A stretch of DNA of 48,351 nucleotides. Origin: a virus (Duplodnaviria; Heunggongvirae; Uroviricota; Caudoviricetes). Of the stretch, positions 1 through 48,351 are shown piece after piece. Position 1 is the first letter of the stretch. Each line of letters begins with the position of its first letter. The stretch is taken from the IMG/VR virus record IMGVR_UViG_2654588181_000001. One strand, given 5' to 3'. Position numbers and translations under genes: made by a program. A model generated the notes under the pieces. That model searched no databases. It was not told the DNA's origin and saw only the letters and a list, made by a program, of their open reading frames with translations.

Positions 1-1361
1 TTTACCGTTTCCTGTAAACCGAGGTATTCGATAACGGCAGCAACGGTTGATTTCGCAAGAATATCCCGCCCGACTTTTGTCAGGGTTGCCAGGCTGGCGA
101 CATCATTCCCCGTAAAATACGGAAACTTGTCTGCCGCAGTAGTAAGCCCGGCCAGCGCCGTCAGGGTGGCATCTTTCGGTTGCTTACCCGCAAGCGCGTT
201 AGTCATGGTGGTCGCAAAATTCGGGTCGTTTCCCAGCGCCGCCGCTAACTCGTTCAGCGTATTCAGTGCGTCAGGTGACGAATCTACAAGGGCGGCAATC
301 GCAGCCATAACATAAGCCGTGCTTGCGATCTGAGTATTGTTAGTACCTTTTGGCGCAGTTGGTGTTGTTGGTGTTCCGGTCAGCGCCGGACTGTTCAGGG
401 GCGCTTTCTTGTTCGTTTCATCCATTACCACCTTTATAGCTTTCGATGTCGCGGCCAGTGTTTCAGACGTGCTGTTGGTGGCACTACTGAGCTGAGTTAT
501 TCCCCTTACAGTCAGTGAAGCTACAGGCACATTTGTTATCTGCTCCCACGAATGCGTGTGATTGGACGGAGCCTTTCCGGCCGCAAGATCATACGCTGCC
601 TTAACAGCCTTTGGTGTTGCTGCCAGCGTTTCAGACGTGCTGTTGGTGGCACTACTGAGCTGAACAATCCCTTTTCGCGCTGTGGTAGCGTCCTGTGCGG
701 TGTATTTAGCATTAGCCAGGTCATATGCTGCCTTAACAGCCTTAGGCGTCGCAGCAAGCGTTTCAGACGCGCTATTGGTGGCGCTGCTAAGTTGAACAAA
801 GCCTTTTGAGGTTAAAGTTGCATCAGGATGATTACGTGATTGCTCATGTTTCACAATGGCTTGCTTAAGCCGTTTTGCTGAAACAGCAAGGGAATCATCT
901 GTACCTGCATCAATTTCTTGTTCATTAGCAAATCTTGCCACCCCAACAACAGTTTCGGTCGCGGGAGGATTAATAAACTCAATATCACCAAATGTAATAT
1001 TTTTAGTATCAAGCGTTTTAATTGCTATATCACTTGATATTAAAGCGATAGTAGATGATGCTTTATTTATTATTGCTTGTTCTTGTGAGTATACAGCAAA
1101 CAACGTACCCTTATTCGTATACAATCCTATTGTATGGACAACATACTCATCTTTACTATCATCCTTCGCTGTTACATGAATTGTATCAGGGGAAACAACT
1201 TTGCCACCTATTGTGGTAAGTCGTTTTATTTCGTTTGTTATATTTGTTTGTGAAGTTGACGTGACATAATATCTACTACCTAAACCAACAGAAACAATCT
1301 CAACTTTATTTGTTCCTGTTTTGTTGGCATTAACCAGCTCCTGACGCCCGGCGTCAGTCAT
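1..1361 (-). CDS. tail fibre protein, constant N-terminal part (partial at window edge; continues in frame into 48351..47390 if ends are joined)
   Basis: Minus-strand ORF from ATG at 1359-1361 (MTDAGRQELVNANKTG...) with no stop before position 1; three tandem ~50-aa repeats (GIVQLSSATNSTSETLAATPKAVKAAYDLA); last codons ...AVIEYLGLQETV lie inside the 25-bp inversion crossover repeat; sits downstream of baseplate gpI/gpJ-like genes. Confidence 0.8.
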   Translation of the reverse strand, partial: MTDAGRQELVNANKTGTNKVEIVSVGLGSRYYVTSTSQTNITNEIKRLTTIGGKVVSPDTIHVTAKDDSKDEYVVHTIGLYTNKGTLFAVYSQEQAIINKASSTIALISSDIAIKTLDTKNITFGDIEFINPPATETVVGVARFANEQEIDAGTDDSLAVSAKRLKQAIVKHEQSRNHPDATLTSKGFVQLSSATNSASETLAATPKAVKAAYDLANAKYTAQDATTARKGIVQLSSATNSTSETLAATPKAVKAAYDLAAGKAPSNHTHSWEQITNVPVASLTVRGITQLSSATNSTSETLAATSKAIKVVMDETNKKAPLNSPALTGTPTTPTAPKGTNNTQIASTAYVMAAIAALVDSSPDALNTLNELAAALGNDPNFATTMTNALAGKQPKDATLTALAGLTTAADKFPYFTGNDVASLATLTKVGRDILAKSTVAAVIEYLGLQETV

Positions 1362-1412
1362 CGTAAATAATAATTTACTCACGCTTAATTCCTTGAATTA
1401 ACAAATTGCGAA

Positions 1413-25973: not shown

Positions 25974-26049
25974 TGGTGGCCCCTACCGGATTTGAACCGA
26001 TGACCGTGCGATTATGAGTCGCCTGCTCTAACCACTGAGCTAAGGGGCC
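25974..26049 (-). tRNA. tRNA with CAU anticodon (Ile2/lysidine type or Met), CCA encoded
   Basis: 76-nt cloverleaf: GGCCCCT acceptor stem, D-arm TAGCTCAGTGGTTAGAGCA, anticodon loop CTCATAA, T-loop GGTTCAAATCC, 3' CCA; first ~42 nt match my recollection of E. coli ileX. Confidence 0.8.
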
Positions 26050-36880: not shown

Positions 36881-36903
36881 TAAAAAAGGCCCCCGAAGGG
36901 GCC
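36881..36903 (-). terminator. rho-independent terminator
   Basis: GGCCCC-CGAA-GGGGCC hairpin followed by T-run on minus strand. Confidence 0.5.
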
Positions 36904-36909
36904 TAATCG

Positions 36910-37029
36910 CTACTTGCTGCTAATGTTTATCGTCACATTCAGAGCGTTATCAGTAATCTTCCAACCCTCCCCATGTGGCGTAAACAAAGCTCCAGTAACA
37001 ACGATAAAAATACACATACAGTATTTTTT
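36910..37029 (-). CDS. small hydrophobic peptide (40 aa) with own SD and terminator
   Basis: MKKYCMCIFIVVTGALFTPHGEGW...; AAGGG 8 nt upstream of ATG; terminator immediately downstream. Confidence 0.35.
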   Translation of the reverse strand, partial: KKYCMCIFIVVTGALFTPHGEGWKITDNALNVTINISSK

Positions 37030-37785
37030 CATTGTGTGGCCCTTACAGGCCGTTTCACGGCATCCCCACCGACGAAAACAACGCGAGAGCAAGCACGGCT
37101 GCTTGTGCTTGCATGTACGGCAACAGGAAATCCTCCCCTAAAGTCGGTGCCCGGGTGCGAATCGGCGGGAAGGTCCACAGGTATTTTACGATTATTTTAA
37201 GATTAGTAATAGGAAAGAAATTAAACGAAAAAAACAGTTTATTTTCACAAAATCAGTAACCTACCCACAATCTGTGAGTTTGCTGACACAACAAGAACCA
37301 CAATTTTTTGATGTATAATAGTGGACTATTATTACCTTTTGAGTAAAATCAATTTGCTGCTTGTGCTTGCGTGGTTGTTTATACAACAACGTAATGCTGA
37401 AAGGACCGCGAATCCGATCAGCACGAAAGAACCGTCCTCAATAGGGCGGTTTTTTTGTTTCTGCCTACCAATAAACCCACGCTATGTGGTTGTCTCTGTT
37501 AAAATCCCGCCGTATTGACATGAATGCGCCATTGGTGGACACTTTCCGAGCCGTAGCAAAATCTACGGTCGGGATTAGCCTCCTGAATAACACGATGGCG
37601 CATACCGCGTTAGCGGTTTTTTTATGCGTAGAGCACTGTTACGCCCAAATTATGGTGGGTCGTACAGGGGCGGAGAAATCCGCGCCGGTTCGTCATTGTG
37701 TCCGGTAAGGCTAACCCTGTACGGCTCACCACCATTTGATTAGCCTCGAATGGCGGTGATAGTTCCATATACTGGAGATATCACA

Positions 37786-43481: not shown

Positions 43482-44330
43482 TTAATGTTGGAGTGATTTC
43501 CAGGTCTTTCTTAACCTGTTATAACGCTGCTCAACGAGGGATCGTAAATATGCAAGGTCAGCTCCAGGATACATGCCATCAGCAAATTCCTGGCTAACCT
43601 CTCTAGTGATTTGATGACGAAGTTCGGCCTCTCCCTTTTCCCGAACAAGACGCGCAGCTCTCTCCGCTGCTTTCTGTTTTGCCTTTATCTCTCTGGCCGT
43701 CTTCCTCTGACGCCATACATTCTCCATCTGCTCCTGAATAACAATACGCTTATAATCAGCCTCCGTTATCGCTTTTTTAAGCCGTTCGCTATTCTTCGCA
43801 TTGAAGTAATTAAGTTTCTGGCTAACCGCACGTCTCCATGCTTGTTCAGTAATACCAACGGTTTCCAGCAGTTGATCACGAATCTCTATTTTCGCTGGCC
43901 AATACTGTTTATTCACCCGATCCCAGCGACGTTCATAATCAATAAAACCTAACGCTTTCAGTTGCGACAACGCCCTTGTACAGCGTGTTATAGACTTGTT
44001 CCCAGCTTCGGATACGGTAGACAGGCCGCAAAAATCAGCCAACGCCTCAGCACTGGCCAGAACCCGCTTAGAAATGATGTTTACATGGTGCAAAATCGCA
44101 GCAATCACAGCATTAATCGCCCGACGACGATGCTCGTTTATCCGACGCTTCCGCTCTGACGGTTGATTAACGTAGAACGCAACCTCACACGTAAGATCAC
44201 GACCATTAATGCGCTGTAAAGCATCAGATAACACCAGCGGCAGCTTGTGCGTATGGTGCTTTGGAGGCTGGAACTCCGGCGACAAATTACAAACGTAAGC
44301 TGAACGTAGAGACGGCATTGGTCTATCCAT
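43482..44330 (-). CDS. repA: plasmid replication initiator, IncFII RepA-family
   Basis: ...GLSTVSEAGNKSITRCTRALSQLKALGFIDYE... resembles IncFII RepA1 core as recalled; start uncertain (TTG 44360, ATG 44330 or 44318). Confidence 0.75.
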   Translation of the reverse strand: MDRPMPSLRSAYVCNLSPEFQPPKHHTHKLPLVLSDALQRINGRDLTCEVAFYVNQPSERKRRINEHRRRAINAVIAAILHHVNIISKRVLASAEALADFCGLSTVSEAGNKSITRCTRALSQLKALGFIDYERRWDRVNKQYWPAKIEIRDQLLETVGITEQAWRRAVSQKLNYFNAKNSERLKKAITEADYKRIVIQEQMENVWRQRKTAREIKAKQKAAERAARLVREKGEAELRHQITREVSQEFADGMYPGADLAYLRSLVEQRYNRLRKTWKSLQH

Positions 44331-44344
44331 ATGTTCGCTCTTGC

Positions 44345-44457
44345 GTCCACGGAAAACCAACGTATAATGGGAGTTGTCGAGGCGCCCATGGTTAATTGGT
44401 TGTTGGTTTTCCGTGGATGTCGCAAGAAGCCCGCAGATTTATCTGCGGGCTTTTTGT
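44345..44457 (+). ncRNA. candidate countertranscript (CopA-like antisense RNA)
   Basis: Plus-strand 15-bp-stem hairpin (44347..44361 / 44403..44417) plus intrinsic terminator GCCCGCAGA-TTTAT-CTGCGGGC-TTTTT (44428..44457), antisense to repA leader. Confidence 0.35.
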
Positions 44458-44644
44458 TTCCATATCTGGTCATTTTCCAACCAGACACCCACAATCATAA
44501 CCACGTTACGTGGTTTTAAGAGAACTCTACCACAACACTTTCGGTCATGCACGAAGTCTCTCACTGATCGAACGATAATCCACCAGTAAAAGGATCTAAA
44601 TTGGATCTCGTTTTGCGAGCATCATACTACTGGCCTAACTCCAG

Positions 44645-45199
44645 TCAATGATTCCCAGCCGGAAACCTGCGGTAAAGCGTGGATAAGGTAACATCGAAGA
44701 TAATCGCTATCCGCTTACGTGAAACACCATTCGCAATAAGCCTTCCGATCTGTTCCCATTGCTCTGGGGCCAATTTTGAGCGGCGTCCTCCTATCCTGCC
44801 ATTAGCCCTTGCCACCGCCAATCCTGCACGCGTTCTTTCAATCATATTTTCCCGCTCCATCTCTGCGACTGCACTCAGCATCGTGTAGGCAAAGCGGCCA
44901 ATTGAAGTGCTAATTTTTATCCCTTCCGTAATCGAAATAAACTCAATGTTGTTTGATAAAAAATGGTTAAGTAAATCAACAAGATGAATCAGAGAACGCC
45001 CCATTCGATCCAGCTTCCAGACAATAACCGTATCGCCCGGCCGTAACACCTTCAGTAGCTTATCAAGCCCTGGTCGTTTTGATTTAGCACCGGATATTTT
45101 ATCTTCAAAAATCCGGTCACATCCTGAACTCCTGAGCGCCTCCAGTTGTAATTCCAAATTCTGGTCAAAAGTTGACACCCTCGCATAACCATATTGCAT
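44645..45199 (-). CDS. serine DNA invertase (Gin/Cin/Pin/Hin family)
   Basis: 184-aa ORF; N-terminal YARVSTFDQ with catalytic Ser, C-terminal HTH; adjacent to inverted repeat. Confidence 0.9.
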   Translation of the reverse strand: MQYGYARVSTFDQNLELQLEALRSSGCDRIFEDKISGAKSKRPGLDKLLKVLRPGDTVIVWKLDRMGRSLIHLVDLLNHFLSNNIEFISITEGIKISTSIGRFAYTMLSAVAEMERENMIERTRAGLAVARANGRIGGRRSKLAPEQWEQIGRLIANGVSRKRIAIIFDVTLSTLYRRFPAGNH

Positions 45200-45272
45200 A
45201 CTTTCTAAACCGCGATTGTTGCTAAAAGCGGGAAAAAATATCGTTTAGACGACACAGAGGCAATTCGCAAAA

Positions 45273-45297
45273 ACCTCGGTTTACAGGAAACGGTAAA
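45273..45297. repeat. inversion crossover site, left inverted repeat
   Basis: ACCTCGGTTTACAGGAAACGGTAAA = exact reverse complement of 48327..48351 and of 1..25. Confidence 0.8.
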
Positions 45298-46297
45298 CAA
45301 GGCTGGTAACGCCGTGCAAAAGACAGGCGATACCTTGTCCGGTGGACTTACTTTTGAAAACGACTCAATTCTTGCATGGATTCGAAATACCGACTGGGCA
45401 AAGATTGGATTTAAAAATGATGCCGACAGCGATACTGATTCATACATGTGGTTTGAAACAGGCGACAACGGCAATGAATATTTCAAATGGAGAAGCAAAC
45501 AAAGCACCACAACAAAAGACCTGATGAATCTTAAATGGGATGCTTTGTCTGTTCTTGTTAAAGCCCTTTTCAGCAGTGAAGTAAAAATATCGACAGTCAA
45601 TGCACTGAGGATATTTAATTCATCTTTTGGTGCCATTTTTCGTCGTTCTGAAGAATGCCTGCATATCATCCCTACACGAGAGAATGAGGGGGAAAATGGT
45701 GATATAGGGCCACTACGCCCCTTTACGCTTAATCTCAGAACAGGTCGCATAACTATGGGGCATGGTCTGGATGTTACAGGAGATATATTTACAAACCGTT
45801 TTTTAATTAACAGCAGTACAGGCATGTGGATTCATATGCGTGACCAGAACGTTATTATGGGACGTAATGCGGTATCCACTGATGGTGCTCAGGCATTGCT
45901 TCGTCAGGACCATGCCGACCGCAAGTTCATGATAGGTGGATTGGGAAATAAGCAATTTGGCATCTACATGATTAATAACTCAAGGACAGCCAATGGCACC
46001 GATGGTCAGGCGTACATGGATAATAACGGGAATTGGCTTTGCGGCTCGCAAGTTATTCCCGGCAACTATGGCAATTTTGATTCCAGATATGTGAAAGATG
46101 TTCGACTTGGTTCACAGCAATATTATGGAGTGAACAACTGGCAAACATGGAATTTCCAGTGCCCGTCAGGTCATGTATTGTCTGGTATTAATGTTCAGGA
46201 TACAGGGTCCAACTCTGCCGATAATATAGCGGGCGTTTATTACAGACCCGTTCAAAAGTATATAAATGGCACCTGGTATAATGTAGCGAGCGTTTAA
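45273..46297 (+). CDS. alternative tail-fibre C-terminal cassette (silent in this orientation)
   Basis: Open frame through the left repeat (…[25 protein letters not shown]…) with no upstream start; becomes fused to the constant part after inversion. Confidence 0.7.
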
Positions 46298-46298
46298 T

Positions 46299-46826
46299 AT
46301 GATGCACTTAAAGAACATAAAAGCGGGTAACGCTAAAACACTGGAACAGTATGAGTTAACAAAGAAACACGGAGTTATCTGGCTTTACTCTGAGGACGGA
46401 AAAAACTGGTATGAGGAAGTGAAAAACTTTCAGCCAGACACAATAAAGATTGTTTACGATGCAAATAATATTATTGTCGCCATCACTAAAGATGCCTCCA
46501 CGCTTAACCCTGAAGGTTTTAGCGTCGTTGAGATTCCCGATATAACAGCCAATCGTCGTGCCGATGATTCAGGAAAGTGGATGTTTAAGGATGGAGCTGT
46601 AGTTAAACGGATTTATACGGCAGACGAACAGCAACAACAGGCCGAATCACAAAAGGCTGCGTTACTTTCCGAAGCTGAATCAGTCATCCAGCCGCTGGAA
46701 CGTGCTGTCAGGCTGAATATGGCAACAGACGAGGAACGCACACGACTGGAAGCATGGGAACGCTACAGTGTTCTGGTCAGCCGTGTGGATACGGCAAAGC
46801 CAGAATGGCCACAAAAACCAGAGTAA
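46299..46826 (+). CDS. tail fibre assembly chaperone (silent-orientation copy)
   Basis: 175-aa [17 protein letters not shown]...; paralog of 46854..47387. Confidence 0.75.
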
Positions 46827-46853
46827 AATTAAGGCCCGATAGCGGGCCTTCTC

Positions 46854-47387
46854 TCATTCTGGTTGTTCGGGAAACGTTACTGGCAGGCTGGAGGTGTCTG
46901 TAGATTCGACTTTCTGCGCATAGAGCATCCACTCGGTTAATTTTTGTTTATTCTCGTCGGAAATGATGCCCAGCCGTAACTGTGAGTCCCATAGCTGGGT
47001 TTTATCCCTGACGAGCTGTAGCAAGCTTTGCTTTTCATTTTCCACCTGTTGCCGCTGCTCTTCCTCGGTATAAGTTCGCTTTATCACTACGCCATCTTTG
47101 AACATCCATTTACCCGAAATATCAGCCCGGCGATTTGCTGTAATATCAGGTAATTCAACGACGCTTGCGCCTTCTGGATTAATTGCTGAAACATCCTTTT
47201 CAATACAAATAATAACGCCGTTGTGGTCATAGACCATTTTCAACGTATCAGGCTGAAAGTTCTTTTGTTCCTCATACCAGTTTTTCCCATCCTCTGTATA
47301 AAGCCATTTGATGTTAAATTGTTTCGTTAGCTGGTATTGCTCTTTTGTTTTAGGGTTGCCAGCAGTAATATTTTTTAAGTGCATCAT
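46854..47387 (-). CDS. tail fibre assembly chaperone (expressed-orientation copy)
   Basis: 177-aa ORF MMHLKNITAGNPKT...; directly follows fibre C-terminal cassette. Confidence 0.75.
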   Translation of the reverse strand: MMHLKNITAGNPKTKEQYQLTKQFNIKWLYTEDGKNWYEEQKNFQPDTLKMVYDHNGVIICIEKDVSAINPEGASVVELPDITANRRADISGKWMFKDGVVIKRTYTEEEQRQQVENEKQSLLQLVRDKTQLWDSQLRLGIISDENKQKLTEWMLYAQKVESTDTSSLPVTFPEQPE

Positions 47388-47389
47388 AA

Positions 47390-48351
47390 TTAAATACTCC
47401 CCGCGTTATACCACGTTCCATTAATGCAATACTGAATTGGCCTTGCCTGAGTTGTATCAATTAATTCATCACGGTTTCCGTTAACTGACCCCGTAACGAC
47501 ATAACCTGACCTGTCAGACCAGCCGGGACCATTCCATGTCTGAACAGATGACAGACCGCCAAGACGAATACCTGTAATAAACCTTGAGTTACATTCTGCC
47601 TGCGTGTATGCACCAACATCTCCCGCAGAGGGTTTGCGGGTTGTGGTGTAAAACTCTGACCAGTCAGCTTCAAAGCCATAACCATCACGCGCTGAACGAT
47701 AAAAGATACCGCCATTTCTGTAATTCACGCGGAACTGTACAGCAGGGCTGCTCCCCGTATTCATATTGAAGTGGAGGATTAATGTCGATGCGCCACCAAT
47801 ATTTGCGTTATAGACCCCGCTATTCCAGTTCCAGCCAACAGCTTTATCATTTCCGACAGTGCTTCCTGTTTGCCCTAAAGCAAATGCAGGCTGCTGGTTT
47901 TTCGTGTTGTAGTCTCGTCGCCAGCCAGGAGCATAAGCATCACCATGATTAATATAGGTGAATTGAGCGTTAGTAATTCCGCCGCCGCTGGACGTACTCG
48001 GCGTAGTAACGCGTATGGTCATTGCGCCGCGAGTGCCAATAACTTCCACCACAGCACCTGCAAGACAAATATTTCCGCAACCTGTATCTGTAATGACCTT
48101 ATTATTTGCATAAGCCCATGAGCCTTTGCACATCCAGTAAGGATGGTTAAATGCCCCCTGACTCTCCAGCCACGAAATAAATTGCGCAGTTGTCCAGACC
48201 TGACTATCGCCACCAATATCCACCCATGCGCTATATGCGCGACAGGCCCCAATATTTTTGGTGAAGGTATCTTTTCCCGGAATATCTGCGCCGTTCTGGT
48301 TTTTCTGTAATGCGCCAGAAGCCTGATTTACCGTTTCCTGTAAACCGAGGT
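47390..48351 (-). CDS. tail-fibre variable C-terminal part (in frame with constant part at 1..1361 across the junction)
   Basis: Minus-strand frame open from 48351: [18 protein letters not shown]...; Gly-rich distal domain ending INGTWYNAGSI. Confidence 0.8.
   Translation of the reverse strand, partial: LGLQETVNQASGALQKNQNGADIPGKDTFTKNIGACRAYSAWVDIGGDSQVWTTAQFISWLESQGAFNHPYWMCKGSWAYANNKVITDTGCGNICLAGAVVEVIGTRGAMTIRVTTPSTSSGGGITNAQFTYINHGDAYAPGWRRDYNTKNQQPAFALGQTGSTVGNDKAVGWNWNSGVYNANIGGASTLILHFNMNTGSSPAVQFRVNYRNGGIFYRSARDGYGFEADWSEFYTTTRKPSAGDVGAYTQAECNSRFITGIRLGGLSSVQTWNGPGWSDRSGYVVTGSVNGNRDELIDTTQARPIQYCINGTWYNAGSI
48327..48351. repeat. inversion crossover site, right inverted repeat (identical to 1..25)
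   Basis: TTTACCGTTTCCTGTAAACCGAGGT; core resembles gix/cix-type sites as recalled. Confidence 0.8.

Follow-up and report, generated by a model that had tools for sequence, protein, structure and literature searches.

The window analysed here, the whole stretch of 48,351 nucleotides in virus record IMGVR_UViG_2654588181_000001, carries a serine invertase gene adjoining a segment of 3.07 kb with a repeat at each border. The first-pass annotation had compared this arrangement with the invertible G segment of phage Mu, which raises the question of whether the locus is a tail-fibre switch, and whether the switch still works. We conclude that it is very probably a working Gin/gix-type inversion switch for tail-fibre host range, the same element as Mu G, SfMu G and P1/P7 C, located in the fibre gene of a phage-plasmid of 48 kb that has a P2-like tail. 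The element itself is already known, being an ordinary copy of the textbook Mu G segment.

The first 25 nt of the window are identical to its last 25 nt, which makes the molecule circular, with 48,326 bp and two copies of the repeat, not three. These shared 25 nt are exactly the inverted repeat. Thus, the repeat is where the contig breaks, and only across the window ends is the constant part of the fibre gene joined to the segment. The molecule is a phage-plasmid, with a RepA of the IncFII type and a P2-like tail; such 48-kb plasmid-like phages occur in E. coli and its relatives. A literature search returned no paper on this 48-kb phage-plasmid family or its switch. The paper on Yersinia phage HQ103 (PMC11177050) deals with an unrelated phage of 32 kb. 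The features of the locus are listed in Table 1.

Table 1. Coordinates in the window of the features that make up the inversion locus
Feature	Position	Strand	Remarks
gix-type site, constant-part side	9..34	-	TTATCGAATACC TC GGTTTACAGGAA on minus strand; core 21-22
Constant N-terminal tail fibre part (Sc)	23..1382	-	P2 gpH-like N-terminus
DNA invertase, small serine recombinase, 184 aa	44645..45199	-	Resolvase + HTH_7; reads away from segment, as gin in Mu
Putative recombinational enhancer	45114..45181	-	Gene nt 19-86, 5' end of invertase gene
Fis-like 15-mer 2	45115-45130	-	Invertase gene nt 70/71-85
Fis-like 15-mer 1	45164-45178	-	Invertase gene nt 22-36
gix-type site, invertase side	45264..45289	+	TTCGCAAAAACC TC GGTTTACAGGAA; core dinucleotide 45276-45277
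Variable cassette A (Mu S-type / SfMu type)	45278..46297 (ORF 45314-46297)	+	Silent in assembled orientation
Assembly chaperone for cassette A, U-type, 175 aa	46299..46826	+	Caudo_TAP E 2.7e-37
G+C-rich palindromic hairpin	46831..46850		Between the two convergent chaperone genes; terminator scan
Assembly chaperone for cassette B, U'-type, 177 aa	46854..47387	-	Caudo_TAP E 5e-36
Variable cassette B (Mu S'-type)	47390..48346 (ORF 47390-48223 + upstream)	-	Fused to constant part as assembled

The repeat at 45273-45297 matches the reverse complement of 48327-48351 at every position, and chance alone would give about 1e-6 inverted pairs of 25 bp in DNA of this length. The 25-bp repeat reported in the first-pass annotation is therefore exact, but it is only the part common to two functional sites of 26 bp, which reach 9 bp beyond it into diverged outer half-sites. 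In each site, two half-sites of 12 bp flank a core of 2 bp, which is TC in both. The inner half-sites and the core are identical to those of Mu gix, while the outer half-sites differ from it at 2/12 and 3/12 positions, the latter in the site on the invertase side; this is why the perfect repeat is 25 bp here and not 34 bp, as in Mu. Owing to the 25-nt overlap of the window ends, the inner part of the site on the constant-part side recurs at 48335-48351. The whole molecule was also searched for additional sites, as half-site matches with up to 2 mismatches. This search returned 8 matches against 3.6 expected, and complete sites with the full dyad were found only at the two positions in Table 1. 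The other five matches, with 1-2 mismatches, were at chance level and without a partner half-site.

The assignment of the adjoining gene to the Gin/Cin/Pin family of serine invertases was borne out by its domains (Resolvase, E 2.6e-44; HTH_7, E 2.9e-13) and by a gapless alignment of residues 2-181 with the Gin structure 3UJ3 (E 9e-62); structure 4M6F was also matched. NCBIfam gave no specific name to the invertase or the chaperones. Identity to Gin and Cin is only 56%. The catalytic residues Y5, R7, S9, R42, D64, R65 and R68 are all present, and S9, R7, R42, D64, R65 and R68 are invariant across the invertase alignment, so that the active-site mutation named beforehand as grounds for refutation is not there. 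A sigma-70 scan of the 64-bp spacer gave no invertase promoter above threshold, and Rfam models scanned against 44200-45350, around repA and the invertase gene, gave only implausible matches below threshold. By eye, a weak invertase promoter candidate can be seen as TTGCCT-17-TATTTT, with 8/12 matches.

Inversion by Hin, a recombinase of the same subfamily acting on 26-bp hix sites in the flagellar phase switch of Salmonella, uses a Fis enhancer within the 5' end of the recombinase gene. In Hin, the contacts with Fis and the enhancer are made by Q151, R154 and L155, the Fis-contact residues, and by a basic helix-B patch of K47, R/K48 and K/R51 (PMC3798978). The equivalents of the first three are kept in the present invertase as Q150, R153 and L154, and its helix-B basic patch has K47 and K50. 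The position of Hin Lys47, which is Lys in 15/15 invertases aligned by the authors of that study (PMC3798978), is Asp here (Asp46), and our alignment has Asp or Asn there throughout the clade of this invertase. Further, positions 103-106 read AYT, as against F(F/T/V)FH in Gin, Cin and the other sequences of the alignment outside the clade. The FFH that AYT replaces includes His106 of Gin, a site of Fis-independent hyperactive mutations. The clade is spread over E. coli 48-kb phage-plasmids, P1/D6/SJ46-like plasmids and Citrobacter prophages. It is common but uncharacterised, and these substitutions leave some small room for the idea that its members handle the Fis enhancer in another way, or invert faster or slower, on standard gix sites.

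A search for a Fis-type enhancer in the 5' end of the invertase gene had been proposed. In the Gin, Cin, Pin, Hin and Min systems, inversion depends on Fis and on negative supercoiling, and the enhancer acts in cis through a pair of Fis sites spaced about 48 bp. Two G...C 15-mers lie there 48-49 bp apart, at gene positions that match those in gin and cin and aligned with theirs, and the interval in which they lie has the position of the enhancer annotated for Cin in P7 (cin nt 19-86). Across 75 invertase genes, synonymous variation falls to 0.17-0.26 over exactly the two 15-mer patches, compared with 0.45 gene-wide. Degenerate Fis-consensus patterns run over the first 200 nt of the gene gave no strict match and matched neither 15-mer; the lone loose match, at nt 94, lies away from both proposed sites. 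Since these patterns are uninformative, the assignment rests on position and conservation, which make the interval a putative Fis enhancer. Dependence of inversion on Fis is likewise suggested by analogy.

The segment is collinear with SfMu G over 3,086 bp at 93.4% nucleotide identity, and where it aligns with Mu G and P7 C, identity is about 90-95%. It holds, as had been claimed, two fibre C-terminal cassettes, each followed by its own Caudo_TAP chaperone gene; protein identities to SfMu across cassettes and chaperones are 94-97%. Cassette A has 93.8% identity with the silent SfMu Sv, 79.9% with P7 Sv' and 68.6% with Mu S, and it matches the Mu S structure 5YVQ (E 3e-140). The U-type chaperone that goes with it has 91.4% identity with Mu U and 95% with its SfMu counterpart. 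Cassette B is 98.4% identical to the variable part of Mu S', 95.8% to the SfMu fibre and 96% to P7 Sv, matches the S' structure 8JU3 (E 1e-188), and is accompanied by a U'-type chaperone 98.3% identical to Mu U'. With about 98% protein identity to both Mu S'v and U', the likeness to the Mu G segment could be confirmed. The hairpin between the chaperone genes (-25.4 kcal/mol, z -6.0 against shuffles) is probably a two-way terminator. The two variable domains had been described as unrelated. Their tips are indeed divergent, but the last ~75 aa are 36% identical (E 4e-8), so the description was overstated. The divergence of the tips, along with the 98% identity to Mu S', suggests two receptor specificities.

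Outside the segment lies the constant part of the fibre, which contains three copies of SSATNSxSETLAATxKA(V/I)K, two of them followed by AAYD. It had been placed at 1..1361, but the start is most likely GTG 1382 and not ATG 1361. This GTG is preceded at 7 nt by an AAGGA ribosome-binding site, follows the gpI gene by 30 nt, and is the start annotated in relatives. An open frame of 777 codons crosses the circle junction and links cassette B in frame to the constant part, and the expressed fusion as assembled is the one with the Mu S'-type cassette. The repeats lie within the fibre reading frame, as predicted, and encode LGLQETV. Simulated inversion left both frames open: the fibre has 772 aa in the orientation of the assembly and 793 aa in the inverted one, and the two share their first 461 aa. 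In the assembled orientation, the frame of cassette A is open upstream only to 45209, and its first start codon is the internal GTG 45314.

The window shows one orientation of the segment only, and both orientations are found among relatives. CP099296.1 and CP057727.1, both of 48,056 bp, differ by a clean inversion of 2,957 bp between flanks that are 99.94% identical. In the E. coli ATCC 25922 record NZ_CP032086.1, the two copies differ by a clean inversion of 3,071 bp. An A/G polymorphism in the inner half-site travels with the segment in that strain and the outer half-sites stay with the flanks, which places the exchange within an interval of ~11 bp around the TC core. Yersinia phage vB_YpM_39 has flanks 98% identical to those here, the opposite orientation and a different Sv. 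Among PLSDB records of the family, ~15 have the S'-type cassette joined to the constant part and 14 have it joined to the invertase flank. The relatives that have inverted carry an invertase 99-99.5% identical to the present one and the same outer half-sites, including the outer half-site and core of the invertase-side site. Taken together with the open simulated frames, these records agree with the claim that inversion swaps the fibre C-terminus, and we infer that the switch is active in this particular molecule as well.

By analogy with Gin and Hin, invertase dimers would bind both inverted 26-bp sites, and the sites would pair, probably aided by Fis from the host, which would occupy an enhancer within the first ~90 nt of the invertase gene. 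Cutting at the central TC dinucleotide, rotation and rejoining would then flip 3,069 bp. The fibre promoter, the start codon and the first ~455 codons are outside the segment, so a flip would replace the final 311 or 332 codons and, along with them, the chaperone gene that belongs to them. The cassette adjoining the invertase lacks a start codon and is silent. As assembled, the molecule would make the Mu S'/U'-type fibre and, when inverted, the SfMu S-type fibre.

A different reading of the same parts is that the switch is frozen or decayed, inherited from a Mu-like G segment, and that only the S'-type fibre is ever made. The single orientation in the window, the outer half-sites that depart from Mu gix and the divergence of the invertase from Gin would fit this, as would the five to six independent assemblies of the 48,488-bp ATCC 25922 plasmid, which all have one orientation. 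However, the invertase ORF is intact with its catalytic residues complete, neither the silent cassette nor its chaperone gene has lost its open frame, and relatives with identical outer half-sites and a 99.5% identical invertase do invert; we consider a frozen switch improbable. The uniform ATCC 25922 assemblies may reflect slow inversion, or assemblers that report the majority form.

Rather less probable still is an assembly artefact, in which the repeat or the join of constant part and segment would come from mis-assembly and the window ends would not be adjacent. The contig does break at the repeat, and the assembler may have left the orientation of the segment unresolved. Against this, the reading frame is open through the junction, and finished circular plasmids and phage genomes of the family share the arrangement with a fibre gene that is continuous at this point. 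The break at the shared 25 nt would itself be expected from a graph assembler if the reads hold both orientations, which would favour a switch. Multi-site inversion of the kind known from Min of p15B or from shufflons, with three or more fibre variants as its products, has the least to recommend it, and its probability is close to nil. Min belongs to the same recombinase family and shuffles tail-fibre C-termini through six crossover sites and many permutations. Relatives do hold different cassettes in the same slot, for example the Sv of vB_YpM_39, but a full dyad exists at two sites only here, compared with the six of p15B, and the remaining half-site matches, being at chance level and without a partner, led us to reject a Min-like system. 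The two-site Gin/gix-type switch is thus the reading that we retain.

Compared with known systems, the locus has the same layout as Mu G and its SfMu copy: Sc, gix, Sv-U, inverted U'-Sv', gix and an outward-reading invertase. It differs from Mu in its constant fibre part, which is P2 gpH-like and about 455 aa long, whereas that of Mu has ~170 aa, and in its replicon, an IncFII-RepA phage-plasmid instead of a transposable phage. The C segment of P1/P7 (Cin/cix) also resides on a phage-plasmid and has homologous cassettes, but it is longer, about 4.2 kb with longer Sv parts, and P7 cin reads towards the segment. The P2-like phage P88 likewise combines a P2-type tail and baseplate with a G-type segment in the fibre gene, 93% identical to this one. 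Positions 1-807 of the constant part are about 90% identical to the fibres of P88 and others, and for the C-terminal 800 nt of the P88 constant part the identity is about 92%. The P88 invertase, in contrast, is 56% identical, and P88 is an integrated prophage, not a plasmid. Hin flips a promoter and its gene lies inside its segment, whereas here coding cassettes are flipped and the invertase gene lies outside.

As a textbook host-range switch, the locus has little importance beyond annotation. Within this widespread phage-plasmid family of E. coli, Yersinia and Klebsiella, assemblies will break at the repeat or show an arbitrary orientation, and the annotated "tail fiber protein" of any single record is one of two products. 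Host-range predictions should therefore weigh both tips, some of these phages having been isolated on Yersinia pestis. Additionally, homology to SfMu and Mu starts within the recombination site. With cassettes homologous from within the site and an invertase only 56% identical to Gin, the family provides a clean case of cassette exchange between unrelated phages, independent of the recombinase.

Between the repeats we found four genes, two divergent fibre C-terminal frames and two chaperone genes, in line with the first-pass annotation, which had proposed two cassettes each followed by its own assembly chaperone. Cassette A lies on the invertase side, and cassette B is fused to the constant part in the assembled orientation. 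The segment runs collinear with its counterpart in the Shigella phage SfMu, the G segment (93.4% identity, 3,086 bp), and Mu G and P7 C show about 90-95% identity to it where alignable. The solved structures of both Mu fibre tips, 5YVQ and 8JU3, match the cassettes strongly. The variable domains had been described as looking unrelated; they do differ over most of their length, but when aligned their last ~75 aa share 36% identity. The two chaperones are 57% identical.

Features of the fibre switch and neighbouring replicon genes
Feature	Position	Strand	Remarks
IncFII-type RepA	43482-44360	minus	
Small serine recombinase, 184 aa	44645-45199	minus	Resolvase (E 2.6e-44), HTH_7 (E 2.9e-13)
Invertase-side site	45264-45289		TTCGCAAAAACC-TC-GGTTTACAGGAA
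Cassette A			Protein identity 93.8% to second SfMu cassette, 79.9% to P7 Sv', 68.6% to Mu S
Chaperone A gene	46299-46826	plus	Caudo_TAP family; protein identity 91% to Mu U
Strong palindromic hairpin	46831-46850		Between chaperone genes
Chaperone B gene	46854-47387	minus	Caudo_TAP family; protein identity 98.3% to Mu U'
Cassette B			Protein identity 98.4% to Mu S' variable part, 95.8% to SfMu fibre
Fibre gene	GTG 1382 through 1, then 48326-47390	minus	Single open frame
Constant-part-side site	34-9	minus	TTATCGAATACC-TC-GGTTTACAGGAA
tRNA-Met (CAT) gene	25974-26049	minus	Also annotated in vB_YpM_39

The perfect 25-bp inverted repeats held to bound the segment were recovered: 45273-45297 is the exact reverse complement of 48327-48351, whereas chance alone would yield about 1e-6 pairs of this kind. 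By alignment with the Mu boundaries, the limits of the recombination sites were set at 26 bp each. The core and the inner half-sites of both are identical to those of the Mu site, TTATCCAAAACC-TC-GGTTTACAGGAA, whereas the outer half-sites, on the flank side, differ from it at three positions (invertase side) and two positions (constant-part side). This divergence accounts for a perfect repeat of 25 bp, against 34 bp in Mu. No further complete site was found in the molecule beyond these two. Just outside the invertase-side site, an open frame lacking a start codon (45209-45272, plus strand) resembles a leftover terminal piece of some other fibre constant region.

The first and last 25 nt of the window are identical, with no longer end overlap, and the molecule is therefore a circle of 48,326 bp with two repeat copies. 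Window 1-25 and 48327-48351 are exactly the inverted-repeat sequence, so that the circle is broken at the repeat. We infer that a contig ending exactly at a shared repeat is the outcome expected from a graph assembler if the reads carried both orientations. On the circle, the fibre gene reads through the junction. The start of the constant part had been placed at 1361; however, GTG 1382 is likelier than ATG 1361, since it has an AAGGA site 7 nt upstream and follows the gpI gene after a 30-nt gap, a spacing that matches the annotated fibre start in relatives. Within the constant part, at about 431-807 (minus-strand coding), there are three copies of (V/T)QLSSATNSxSETLAATxKA(V/I)K, running on as AAYD in two of the three; in the DNA they show up as internal repeats with 84-86% identity.

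Simulated inversion yielded a fibre of 793 aa, compared with 772 aa as assembled, with the first 461 aa in common; inversion would swap the C-terminus on the constant part, as had been suggested. For the cassette next to the invertase, the open frame reaches no further upstream than 45209, and the first start codon in it is an internal GTG; this cassette should therefore be silent.

Near-identical relatives of the window molecule do flip the segment. In the relatives compared, the invertase is 99-99.5% identical, the outer half-sites and the core are the same, and the inner half-site is identical or one base off. Between CP099296.1 and CP057727.1 (both 48,056 bp), 2,957 bp are cleanly inverted and the flanks are 99.94% identical. 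NZ_CP032086.1, a 94,204-bp linear record of E. coli ATCC 25922, contains two ~48.5-kb phage-plasmid copies with a clean 3,071-bp inversion between them. The segment of vB_YpM_39 is oriented opposite to that of the window. Of the family records in PLSDB, about 15 have the S'-type cassette joined to the constant part and 14 have it joined to the invertase flank. In the two ATCC 25922 copies, the inner half-sites carry an A/G polymorphism that follows the segment, whereas each outer half-site remains with its flank; the exchange thus took place in an ~11-bp interval surrounding the TC core. Although the repeat extends over ~73 bp at this point, the exchange is confined to these ~11 bp, and site-specific recombination fits better than homologous recombination.

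The proposed Gin/Cin/Pin-family serine invertase was borne out by its two domains and by a gap-free alignment, over residues 2-181, to the Gin structures 3UJ3 and 4M6F. With only 56% protein identity to Gin and Cin, it is the sole non-textbook part of the switch. Its clade is well populated, the database name being just "recombinase family protein", and includes members on 48-kb E. coli plasmids, 90-100-kb P1/D6/SJ46-like plasmids and Citrobacter chromosomes. A chimera of the two clades also exists among database invertases: P0019 is Gin/Pin-like over residues 1-65 and of the window clade type over 66-184. Residues 104-106 are AYT in the window invertase versus FFH in Gin and Cin; H106 of Gin is a site of Fis-independent mutations. 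Hin Q151, R154 and L155, conserved among Fis-dependent invertases (PMC3798978), have their equivalents in Q150, R153 and L154. Hin residue 47 is lysine in 15 of 15 aligned invertases (PMC3798978), whereas its equivalent is Asp46 here and Asp or Asn across the clade. There is thus a small chance that this invertase is regulated differently.

The Cin enhancer is annotated in P7 at cin nt 19-86. The same gene positions in the window invertase hold GTGTCAACTTTTGAC (nt 22-36) and (A)GTTCAGGATGTGACC (nt 70/71-85), two 15-mers 48-49 bp apart that line up with their counterparts in gin and cin. Among 75 distinct invertase genes, mostly from viral contigs and mostly Gin/Pin-like rather than of the window clade, synonymous differences dip to 0.17-0.20 at codons 5-16 and to 0.26 at codons 25-32, compared with 0.42-0.48 between the dips and 0.45 gene-wide; the Ser9 codon is always TCA. 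These data support a conserved DNA element, a putative Fis enhancer, overlapping the invertase coding sequence.

As for the replicon, the Yersinia phages vB_YpM_39, 41 and 44 are 98-99% identical to the window across most of its length, and close relatives also include many plasmids of ~48 kb from E. coli, E. albertii, E. fergusonii and Klebsiella, among them the 48,488-bp plasmid of ATCC 25922. The P2-type baseplate genes gpJ and gpI adjoin the fibre gene. Upstream of repA, at 44342-44459 (plus strand), two hairpins lie opposite the repA leader: the first is a 16-bp perfect stem (44346-44417), and a run of T follows the second (44423-44456). A countertranscript for copy control may be encoded here; Rfam gave only sub-threshold matches. 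Gathering-level Rfam matches to ryfA, isrK and C4 antisense RNA occur at 36882-37178 (minus), 37550-37623 (plus) and 37648-37736 (plus), respectively, of which the C4 match points to an immunity (antirepressor) region under antisense control of the P1/P7 type.

Homology to SfMu sets in within the 26-bp site, at its position 7 (45264-45275 region, compared with SfMu and Mu), yet the invertase next to it is not related in DNA sequence; the cassette has thus moved between phages independently of its recombinase. Taken together, the observation made in the first pass is confirmed and its interpretation as a Mu G-like switch is supported: an already known Mu/P1-type fibre switch, placed in another phage backbone.
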